A DNA stretch of 64,000 nt from Chloroflexota bacterium (lineage in GTDB: Bacteria > Chloroflexota > Dormibacteria > CF-121). The notes under the pieces were generated by a model that made no database searches, was not told the origin of the DNA, and worked only from the letters and a program-made list of their open reading frames with translations. The DNA lies in the NCBI GenBank assembly GCA_034666565.1, contig JAXDLN010000036.1, forward strand, positions 32,079 to 96,078, read 5' to 3'. Positions 57,111-58,227 of this stretch are shown piece after piece. The stretch's first letter is position 1, and each line of letters begins with the position of its first letter. Position numbers and translations under genes: made by a program.

Positions 57111-57920
57111 TTGAGCAGAGTCATCGCCGTTGCCAATCAAAAAGGCGGAGTTGGCAAGACGACCACCGCGGTAAATCTGGGATGCGCACTCGCTGAGCTC
57201 GGGAAGCGCGTCCTCCTCATCGACCTCGATCCCCAGGGCCATCTGACCATCAACATGGGCTTCAAGCAGCCCGACCAGATCGAGCTCACCCTCTACCATC
57301 TGCTCCTCGATCCGCAGGTGACCCTCGGCCACGTCGTGAAGCACAGCAACCTCGGCGTCGACTTCATCCCGTCCAACATCGAGCTCTCCGGGGCCGAGAT
57401 CCAGCTGGTTTCAGAGATGGGGCGCGAGACCTTCCTCAAAGACAAGCTCGCACCGGGCCAGGACGAATACGACTTCATGGTGATCGATTGCCCGCCCTCC
57501 CTCGGCCTCCTCTGCGTCAATGCCCTGGTCGCCTCGACCGAGGTGATCATTCCGCTCCAGTGCGAATACTTCGGGATGAAGGGCATGCAACTGCTGCACA
57601 ACACCATCGAGCGCGTGCGGGTCAAGTTAAACCCGACACTTCGCATCAGTGGCATCCTGGCCACCATCCACAAGTCCCGGACGCTGCATTCGCAGGAAGT
57701 CTTGGAGCTGGTCCGGGAGCGCTATGGGGACGTGGTCTTCGACGTGGTGATCAAGGACAGCATCCGGTTTGCGGAGACACCGCTGGCTGGGATGTCGATT
57801 CTCCAGTACGCGGGCAGCTCCGAAGGCGCCAACGCGTATCGCGCCCTCGCCAAGGCGGTCGTCAAGCGTGCGCCGGCCGCCCCGGTCGAGACGAAGCAGC
57901 CCGTTGCCTCTCGTGTTTAA
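57111..57920 (+). CDS. ParA/MinD-family P-loop ATPase (Soj-like)
   Basis: Deviant Walker A AVANQKGGVGKTTTAVNLG, then DLDPQG and ILATIHKSRT. 269 aa. Confidence 0.85.
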   Translation: MSRVIAVANQKGGVGKTTTAVNLGCALAELGKRVLLIDLDPQGHLTINMGFKQPDQIELTLYHLLLDPQVTLGHVVKHSNLGVDFIPSNIELSGAEIQLVSEMGRETFLKDKLAPGQDEYDFMVIDCPPSLGLLCVNALVASTEVIIPLQCEYFGMKGMQLLHNTIERVRVKLNPTLRISGILATIHKSRTLHSQEVLELVRERYGDVVFDVVIKDSIRFAETPLAGMSILQYAGSSEGANAYRALAKAVVKRAPAAPVETKQPVASRV

Positions 57921-58227
57921 GCGGGTTTCGCTGGAGGGATCAGCCGAGCTCTTCCGGGAAACCTCGAGCACACCTGAGGTGCTCGCCGAGACCGACCCGG
58001 AGCCGGTTCAGGCGCCGATTCATCATCTGCCCCTGCAGCGTCAGGTCCATGGCGAAACGGTGTCGTACTACGAGTACCGGCTGACCGAGGGCCAGGTGCA
58101 GGACCTGATCGACGCAGTGCAGAAGATCAAGTACCCACACAACCTGAAGAACACGACGAAGCTTGGCATGGAGGAATTCGAGCGCCTCGAGGCGCTGCGC
58201 CAGCTTTTACTCGACGGCCTGCGGTAA
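57912..58227 (+). CDS. small acidic protein translationally coupled to ParA-like ATPase (candidate partner/adaptor)
   Basis: GTG start overlaps the ParA stop (cGTGTTTAAg). 105 aa, predicted helical (...YEYRLTEGQVQDLIDAVQKIKYPHNLKNTTKLGMEEFERLEALRQLLLDGLR). No HTH or ParB signature. Confidence 0.4.

Follow-up and report, generated by a model that had tools for sequence, protein, structure and literature searches.

A conserved pairing of a Soj-type ParA gene with a small gene of an undescribed family in Dormibacteria

The window (the whole 64-kb stretch of DNA analyzed here) contains a ParA/MinD-family ATPase gene whose 3′ end overlaps the start of a second, small gene, and comparison with related genomes indicates that the two are a real two-gene unit, conserved across Dormibacteria. 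By sequence, the ATPase falls within the Soj/ParA group as an unremarkable member. The small protein appears to belong to an undescribed family, outside the known partner families ParB, ParG/omega/SegB, McdB, MinE, and BcsR. The reading that we favor, with some reserve, is that the pair makes up a dedicated positioning module of two components, distinct from chromosomal ParABS, in which the small protein would be the cognate partner of the ATPase. The mechanism would then follow a known pattern, and what would be new is the small partner family. The elements around which the argument turns are:

57043–57071, forward strand: promoter-like element TTGACG-N17-TTAAAT, conserved in close relatives and followed by a conserved 5′ leader upstream of ParA
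57111–57920, forward strand: Soj-type ParA/MinD-family ATPase, 269 aa, TTG start, deviant Walker A motif KGGVGKTT
57913–57920, forward strand: stop/start overlap of the ParA and small genes, GTGTTTAA, 8 nt, read from the sequence
57913–58227, forward strand: putative partner protein of an unannotated family, 104 aa, GTG start, with an N-terminal peptide (residues 1–17), a linker (about 18–50), and a C-terminal domain (51–104)
56266–57006, reverse strand: divergent polytopic membrane protein, 246 aa, about 7–8 TM (eight hydrophobic segments), a possible functional associate
58207–59991, reverse strand: convergent ABC exporter gene, its 3′ end overlapping that of the small gene by 21 nt (58207–58227)

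A Two-Gene Unit

A word-indexed search with the small protein found 150 clusters of homologues (E ≤ 1e-3), nearly all 98–127 aa long and many labeled Candidatus Dormibacteraeota. An exhaustive profile HMM search of 1.84 billion representatives (at 50% identity) gave 43 matches at E ≤ 1e-3, including distant full-length relatives with the same layout, and no informative domain fusions among them, only frameshifted or mis-called ORFs. Genome loci were found with a hand-made degenerate DNA pattern of the N-terminal motif in species-representative genomes: at least 119 stretches matched, at least 117 of which encode a homologue, and the start position of the small gene is conserved (87 ATG, 37 GTG). 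The first-pass annotation had left room for an unconserved small ORF; on these counts it is conserved, and by its conservation it is judged a genuine gene.

The great majority of genomes with homologues, among the matches listed, are Dormibacterota MAGs (Ca. Dormibacter sp., Ca. Aeolococcus gillhamiae, and Ca. Dormiibacter inghamiae are examples); some genomes are labeled Chloroflexi or Limnocylindria, and others have clearly discordant labels. Typical Dormibacteria ParA/small-protein loci occur in MAGs labeled Nitrosotalea, Nitrosopolaris, Verrucomicrobiia, Eisenbacteria, Acidoferrum, and Binatus (L060, L097, L099, L114, L125, L127, L134, L033/L058, L047, L085). Bins of this kind are probably mislabeled or contaminated.

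In every gene context looked up, the gene immediately before the small one is a ParA on the same strand, and this holds even for relatives whose small proteins are only ~35–48% identical. Co-occurrence of the pair across genomes, which had been proposed as a check, is found in the genome loci as well: of those with enough flanking sequence, among the matches listed, all but two have the upstream ParA. The junction is as tight elsewhere as in the window, where the GTG start of the small gene does overlap the ParA stop as originally described: 76 of 120 related pairs overlap (by 1, 4, 8, or 11 nt), and of the 44 that do not, 40 are separated by 0–16 nt. From its sequence, the overlap is taken to be one of translational coupling.

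Upstream of ParA, the window and four related loci (L001, L002, L004, L006) have in common the sequence CTTGAC...GTTAAATAGCC.CA.CCACG, which looks like a promoter-like element plus leader. The TTGACG-N17-TTAAAT element was not called in a strict sigma-70 promoter scan, so it can be termed a promoter only tentatively; a short imperfect inverted repeat, GCTATT-N7-AATAGC, found by eye, overlaps it. No iterons or centromere-like repeat arrays were found in 56900–58400 or in the upstream regions of related loci, and a search for Rfam elements in 55–60 kb of the window gave nothing credible. At the other end of the unit, the 21-nt overlap between the 3′ ends of the small gene (forward) and the exporter gene (reverse) leaves no space for an intergenic terminator.

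The ATPase

Residues 8–17 of the ORF translation are NQKGGVGKTT, a deviant Walker A motif with the signature lysine. The best Pfam match is AAA_31 (7e-62), followed by CbiA (4.5e-26); that to the BcsQ model is weak in comparison (3e-9), and no NCBIfam equivalog reached its cut-off. Soj/ParA matches in the PDB span 1e-49 to 1e-61, the closest solved relatives by sequence being 8ray, a “ParA family protein” (6e-61), 4pfs, a Mycobacterium entry deposited as cobyrinic acid a,c-diamide synthase (8e-60), T. thermophilus Soj (1wcv, 2.5e-56), and H. pylori Soj (6iub, 4.7e-50). The matches listed from a homologue search belong to the same subfamily, and the initial description of a 269-aa Soj-like ATPase with KGGVGKTT is borne out.

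Aligned with the B. subtilis Soj sequence used here, the protein has 45% identity, and the arginine of its KSRTLH stretch, kept in five lineages, aligns with that of Soj ARTN (R189), presumably the residue for nonspecific DNA binding. It has no N-terminal HTH, and no MinD-type C-terminal amphipathic membrane-targeting helix was found: the tail is Pro/Ala-rich (RAPAAPVETKQPVASRV) and is missing in some orthologues. The Soj/ParA matches in the PDB, the arginine at the R189 position, and the lack of a MinD-type helix therefore point to a Soj-type ParA that is presumably nucleoid-binding.

The Small Protein

For the small protein, searches of Pfam, NCBIfam, PADLOC, and PDB sequences gave no match; 37 family members have none in Pfam at E ≤ 1, fold comparison gave no PDB fold match, and no plasmid or phage homologues were found. 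Its length is 104 aa rather than the 105 given originally. Across distant lineages in which ParA orthologues are 67–71% identical, the small protein is only ~35–48% identical, and its N-terminal peptide stays invariant: F-[KR]-R-x-x-L-x-G-S-x-E-L-F-R-x-T throughout the family, and MFKRVSLEGSAELFRET, with a basic tip (K3/R4), in the window. Residues invariant in 120 unique sequences are F2, R4, L7, G9, S10, F14, T17, and P75.

The protein is acidic, as had been noted (pI 5.33; family median 5.5), with a charge of +2 at the N-terminal tip, a median of −3 in a linker of variable length, and a median net charge of −1 in the folded domain. The helical structure also predicted for it holds for the C-terminal half: AF2 gives residues 51–104 block-mean pLDDT values of 78–94, with helices at 59–73 and 86–103, and residues 1–50 values of 53–62, so low that this half is probably disordered. 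A first AF2 model placed beta structure before the two helices; a second, more confident model has no beta strand. Tandem RP(E/I)(I/V)QR-like repeats are present in varying copy number in the linkers of four family members (P0052, P0061, P0087, P0099; alignment A1, columns 57–83), and linker length therefore changes by repeat expansion with both ends fixed.

This arrangement fits the layout reported for partners of ParA/MinD ATPases: a conserved charged N-terminus, predicted disorder, and a separate C-terminal domain. Such partners bind the ATPase via the charged, disordered N-terminus, and the remainder binds cargo (PMC10241942; PMC11407121). [quoted passage not shown]

ParB, parS, and the Chromosomal System

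The absence of a nearby ParB, on which the first-pass annotation had remarked, holds locally. Run against solved structures, a Spo0J probe picked up ParB, Spo0J, and Noc proteins of several bacteria (1e-44 to 1e-121), but it found no ParB in the window or in 134 related loci; nor is there a ParBc domain in any gene-context table looked up. The possibility of a ParB just outside the window was followed on a related contig encoding an identical MBL protein, which has no ParB domain within 10 kb beyond the right edge. No parS site (TGTTTCACGTGAAACA) is present in the window, with up to 3 mismatches allowed, and there is no exact copy in 137 loci.

The small protein itself can be ruled out as a reduced ParB: its hhalign probability against Spo0J is 0.2%, and it has no LG[KR]GL motif. 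The ParA-binding motif of ParB, (L/F/I)G[KR]G(L/F/I) (PMC12704722), was found in 0 of 124 small proteins.

A chromosomal ParB is nonetheless to be expected in this lineage. In a 2025 survey of the ParB-CTPase fold, chromosomal parB is present in 8 of 8 species of o__Dormibacterales and lacking in 0 (PMC12704722, Dataset S1), a table that scores the presence of parB and is silent on adjacent parA; chromosomal parB genes are mostly in parAB operons (PMC12704722). The closest relatives of the window, Ca. Dormibacter sp. MAGs, would place its source within Dormibacterales. The pair is therefore most likely a second, additional dedicated ParA system rather than a replacement for ParABS; that the small protein has replaced ParB in Dormibacteria is made unlikely by the same survey. 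A literature search found nothing directly on ParB or Soj in Dormibacteria.

Neighboring Genes

No third gene linked to the pair in all loci was found among the recurrent neighbors, so the neighborhood singles out no cargo. Two neighbors in the window had been proposed. One of these, the ABC exporter, is rejected because it is not a conserved neighbor: no exporter gene adjoins the pair in L004, L009, L010, L013, or L136, and the exporter is not among the recurrent neighbors. The other, the divergent membrane protein, stays a candidate as a conserved neighbor in part of the family only. Its one Pfam match is sub-threshold (HisKA_7TM, 4e-5); the divergent upstream genes of L001, L004, L006, L009, and L013 encode its homologues (35–74% identity), and a homologue is upstream in 51 of 133 loci by HMM, some loci being cut by tile edges. 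A soluble TPR protein takes its place upstream in 26 loci according to phmmer, or in 56 according to BLAST clustering; none has both (26 vs. 51 loci). CvpA holds the divergent upstream position in other loci. The TPR neighbor, present in many Dormibacteria lineages, is ~290 aa long and divergent from ParA; its TPR region is at the N-terminus, and RPED[EQ]Y closes its long acidic tail (L010:4227–5096 and L076:1790–2674, both reverse strand).

Downstream, 56 related loci have an MBL-fold (Lactamase_B) gene directly after the small gene and in the same orientation. The window has an MBL-fold gene at 62859–63440 (forward strand), 4.6 kb from the pair, with the exporter and heme genes between on the opposite strand; the distance suggests rearrangement or insertion.

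In a rare subfamily of small-protein paralogues (P0161 type, 7 clusters), both the N-terminal FKRxxLxGSxELFR peptide and the C-terminal domain are retained. These paralogues have no adjacent ParA; in five loci they lie directly downstream, with gaps of about 2–60 nt, of a polytopic ~510-aa protein:

L017:1252–3132, reverse strand: paralogue and GT2-like protein
L129:2248–4616, reverse strand: paralogue and GT2-like protein
L138:6448–8294, forward strand: paralogue and GT2-like protein
L139:2719–4553, forward strand: paralogue and GT2-like protein
L140:2–780, forward strand: paralogue and GT2-like protein

The ~510-aa protein resembles a processive GT2 synthase: it has sub-threshold matches to CelA and Chitin_synth_2 and D,D,D/QxxRW-like motifs by eye (DLDSD, PED, QIKRW), and no match among PDB sequences. 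One MAG, CAZHAC01, has both a paralogue locus (L129) and a ParA-type locus (L025).

The wider surroundings are chromosomal housekeeping genes: ComEC, LeuRS, two Lon proteases, FtsH, Obg, L21, and ValRS, with a heme block downstream. The latter (60027–62819, reverse strand) is a cluster of ferrochelatase, uroporphyrinogen decarboxylase, and a chlorite-dismutase-family (HemQ-like) protein, the gene set of the coproporphyrin-dependent heme pathway. The longest ORF for the decarboxylase (60994–62583, 529 aa) is ~170 aa longer than its orthologues in related contigs (335–359 aa), so the true start is probably internal. The two Lon paralogues are both full length and lie within 28 kb (10899–13286 and 38958–41396, both reverse strand), the first adjoined by FtsH (13292–15241). 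A terpenoid locus is possible at 17315–19715 (forward strand), where the gene of a protein with a squalene-hopene-cyclase-like C-terminal domain precedes that of a terpene synthase (family 2 metal-binding domain).

Possible Roles of the Pair

The small protein has the layout of a ParA partner, and it diverges fast except in its N-terminal peptide, where conservation is highest; we therefore infer that it is a cognate activator or adaptor for the ATPase. If the positioning-module reading is right, ParA-ATP would, by analogy, dimerize and coat the nucleoid, and the N-terminal peptide would dock on the dimer and stimulate ATP hydrolysis and DNA release. The acidic, flexible linker would be a tether, and the C-terminal two-helix domain, probably an oligomerization or cargo-binding module, would connect the system to the positioned object; tight translational coupling would hold ParA and small protein in fixed proportion. 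The small protein would, in short, work with ParA by the usual diffusion-ratchet logic on the nucleoid. The interaction, the ATPase stimulation, nucleoid binding by ParA, and the existence and nature of a cargo are all parts of this reading rather than observations.

Of the original proposal, an undescribed cargo-positioning module, the tightly coupled, conserved pair and the undescribed partner with partner-type architecture are retained, and the exporter as cargo and the likeness to McdB or TlpT are not. Points against the positioning-module reading are that conserved synteny in one lineage may reflect inheritance rather than function, that the N-terminal peptide lacks the ParA-binding motif of ParB, that the first 20 residues of the window protein have a net charge of 0, and that no neighbor is linked to the pair in all loci.

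Another possibility, though an unlikely one, is a regulator-effector pair without cargo: like MinE with MinD, the small protein would do no more than drive ParA through rounds of binding to and release from its matrix, and the ParA gradient would itself be the output, for example in division-site placement or control of another process. Presence in at least 117 loci of species genomes with no universally linked third gene would fit such a housekeeping spatial regulator. [quoted passage not shown] The differences from MinD-MinE weigh against it: ParA here lacks the amphipathic membrane-targeting helix, the small protein does not resemble MinE, MinC is missing, and no division genes are nearby in the contexts looked up. 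The coupling of a paralogue to a GT2-like membrane protein also argues that the C-terminal domain of the family binds something.

Slightly less probable still is DNA partition of the type Ib or SegAB kind, with the small protein in the centromere-binding role that ParG, omega, and SegB have: its small dimeric DNA-binding domain would recognize a chromosomal site, and its flexible N-terminal tail would activate the ATPase. In ParF-ParG, delta-omega, and SegA-SegB the ATPase likewise comes before its partner, a protein of ~70–110 aa whose N-terminal tail is flexible and whose C-terminus forms a small folded domain. The pair fits in size and layout (~100 aa, N-terminal tail, folded C-terminus of ~50 aa, ParA without an N-terminal HTH), the beta-then-two-helices order of the first AF2 model is ribbon-helix-helix-like, and the inverted repeat at the promoter-like element could be a site. 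Those partners, however, are ribbon-helix-helix DNA binders with repeated sites by the operon; here the 37 members searched at E ≤ 1 match no RHH, ParG, or omega family, the strand is gone from the more confident model, and no iterons or repeat arrays lie near the operon. The small protein is moreover acidic, even in its folded domain, has no plasmid or phage homologue, and is encoded at a chromosomal locus in Dormibacterales, which already have a chromosomal parB.

A further idea, which we consider improbable, is that ParA serves the chromosomal ParB in trans, an interaction that the small protein would modulate or compete with. The ATPase does appear closest to chromosomal Soj/ParA: the 45% identity to B. 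subtilis Soj is like that of cross-phylum orthologues, the top PDB match is a “ParA family protein”, and the arginine at the Soj R189 position and a partner with a conserved N-terminal peptide are also features in common with Soj/ParA-Spo0J/ParB-parS. The survey table, giving the presence of parB and not adjacency to parA, would allow for this arrangement. The small protein, however, lacks the ParB-CTPase fold, HTH, and LG[KR]GL motif, the pair has no parS nearby and no parAB context, and chromosomal parB genes mostly belong to parAB operons (PMC12704722). The simplest reading of a partner that is invariant, strictly coupled, and equipped with an N-terminal tag of its own is as the cognate activator. 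Finally, a chance overlapping reading frame, of which high-GC DNA gives many, is refuted by protein conservation down to ~35% identity and by motifs, start, and length conserved in more than 120 genomes.

Comparison With Known Partnered ParA ATPases

The first-pass annotation had likened the pair to the McdA/McdB or PpfA/TlpT type, a likeness not borne out at the level of the protein: no sequence or fold match to McdB or TlpT was found. In organization, McdA-McdB is similar, being a ParA-type ATPase with an adjacent small, largely disordered partner, whose N-terminal ~20 residues in McdB carry the ATPase interaction, and coexisting with chromosomal ParABS. The partner in the window differs in having a compact two-helix domain as its C-terminus; a C-terminal tryptophan is a hallmark of McdB, and the small protein ends in ...LLDGLR. 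There are no carboxysome/BMC genes in any neighborhood looked up.

BcsQ-BcsR also combines a ParA/MinD-family ATPase with a very small partner, tied in that case to a processive GT2 membrane synthase, and a paralogue of the small protein follows a GT2-like protein. The differences are gene order, the weak BcsQ Pfam match already given, the lack of a bcs operon in the window, and the restriction of the GT2 link to the rare paralogue.

A Possible Membrane Cargo and Broader Implications

Returning to the positioning-module reading, the membrane-protein neighbors and the GT2-like partner of the paralogue point weakly to a membrane-embedded cargo. One speculative extension, to which we would give little weight at present, is that the small-protein family is a lineage-specific “luggage tag”, an adaptor tethering membrane-embedded machinery to a nucleoid-bound ParA gradient. 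The cargo might then be the divergent multi-pass membrane protein or CvpA, and in the paralogous pair a processive GT2-like polysaccharide synthase. If this is true, the nucleoid would serve Dormibacteria as a means of spacing envelope or polysaccharide-synthesis complexes; we know of no description of such a cargo class for nucleoid-type ParA systems.

ParA/MinD ATPases organize chromosomes, plasmids, carboxysomes, flagella, chemoreceptor arrays, and division sites, and their partners are so diverse that many ParAs stay “orphans”. Here such an orphan gains a candidate partner, from an unannotated family with an invariant 17-residue N-terminal tag, in Dormibacteria, an uncultured soil lineage that has kept ParB. 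If the interaction is confirmed, the family would be a new class of ParA partner, its compact peptide tag could be used to dissect or engineer ParA specificity, and the pair would offer a handle on cell organization in Dormibacteria, a group without cultured members.
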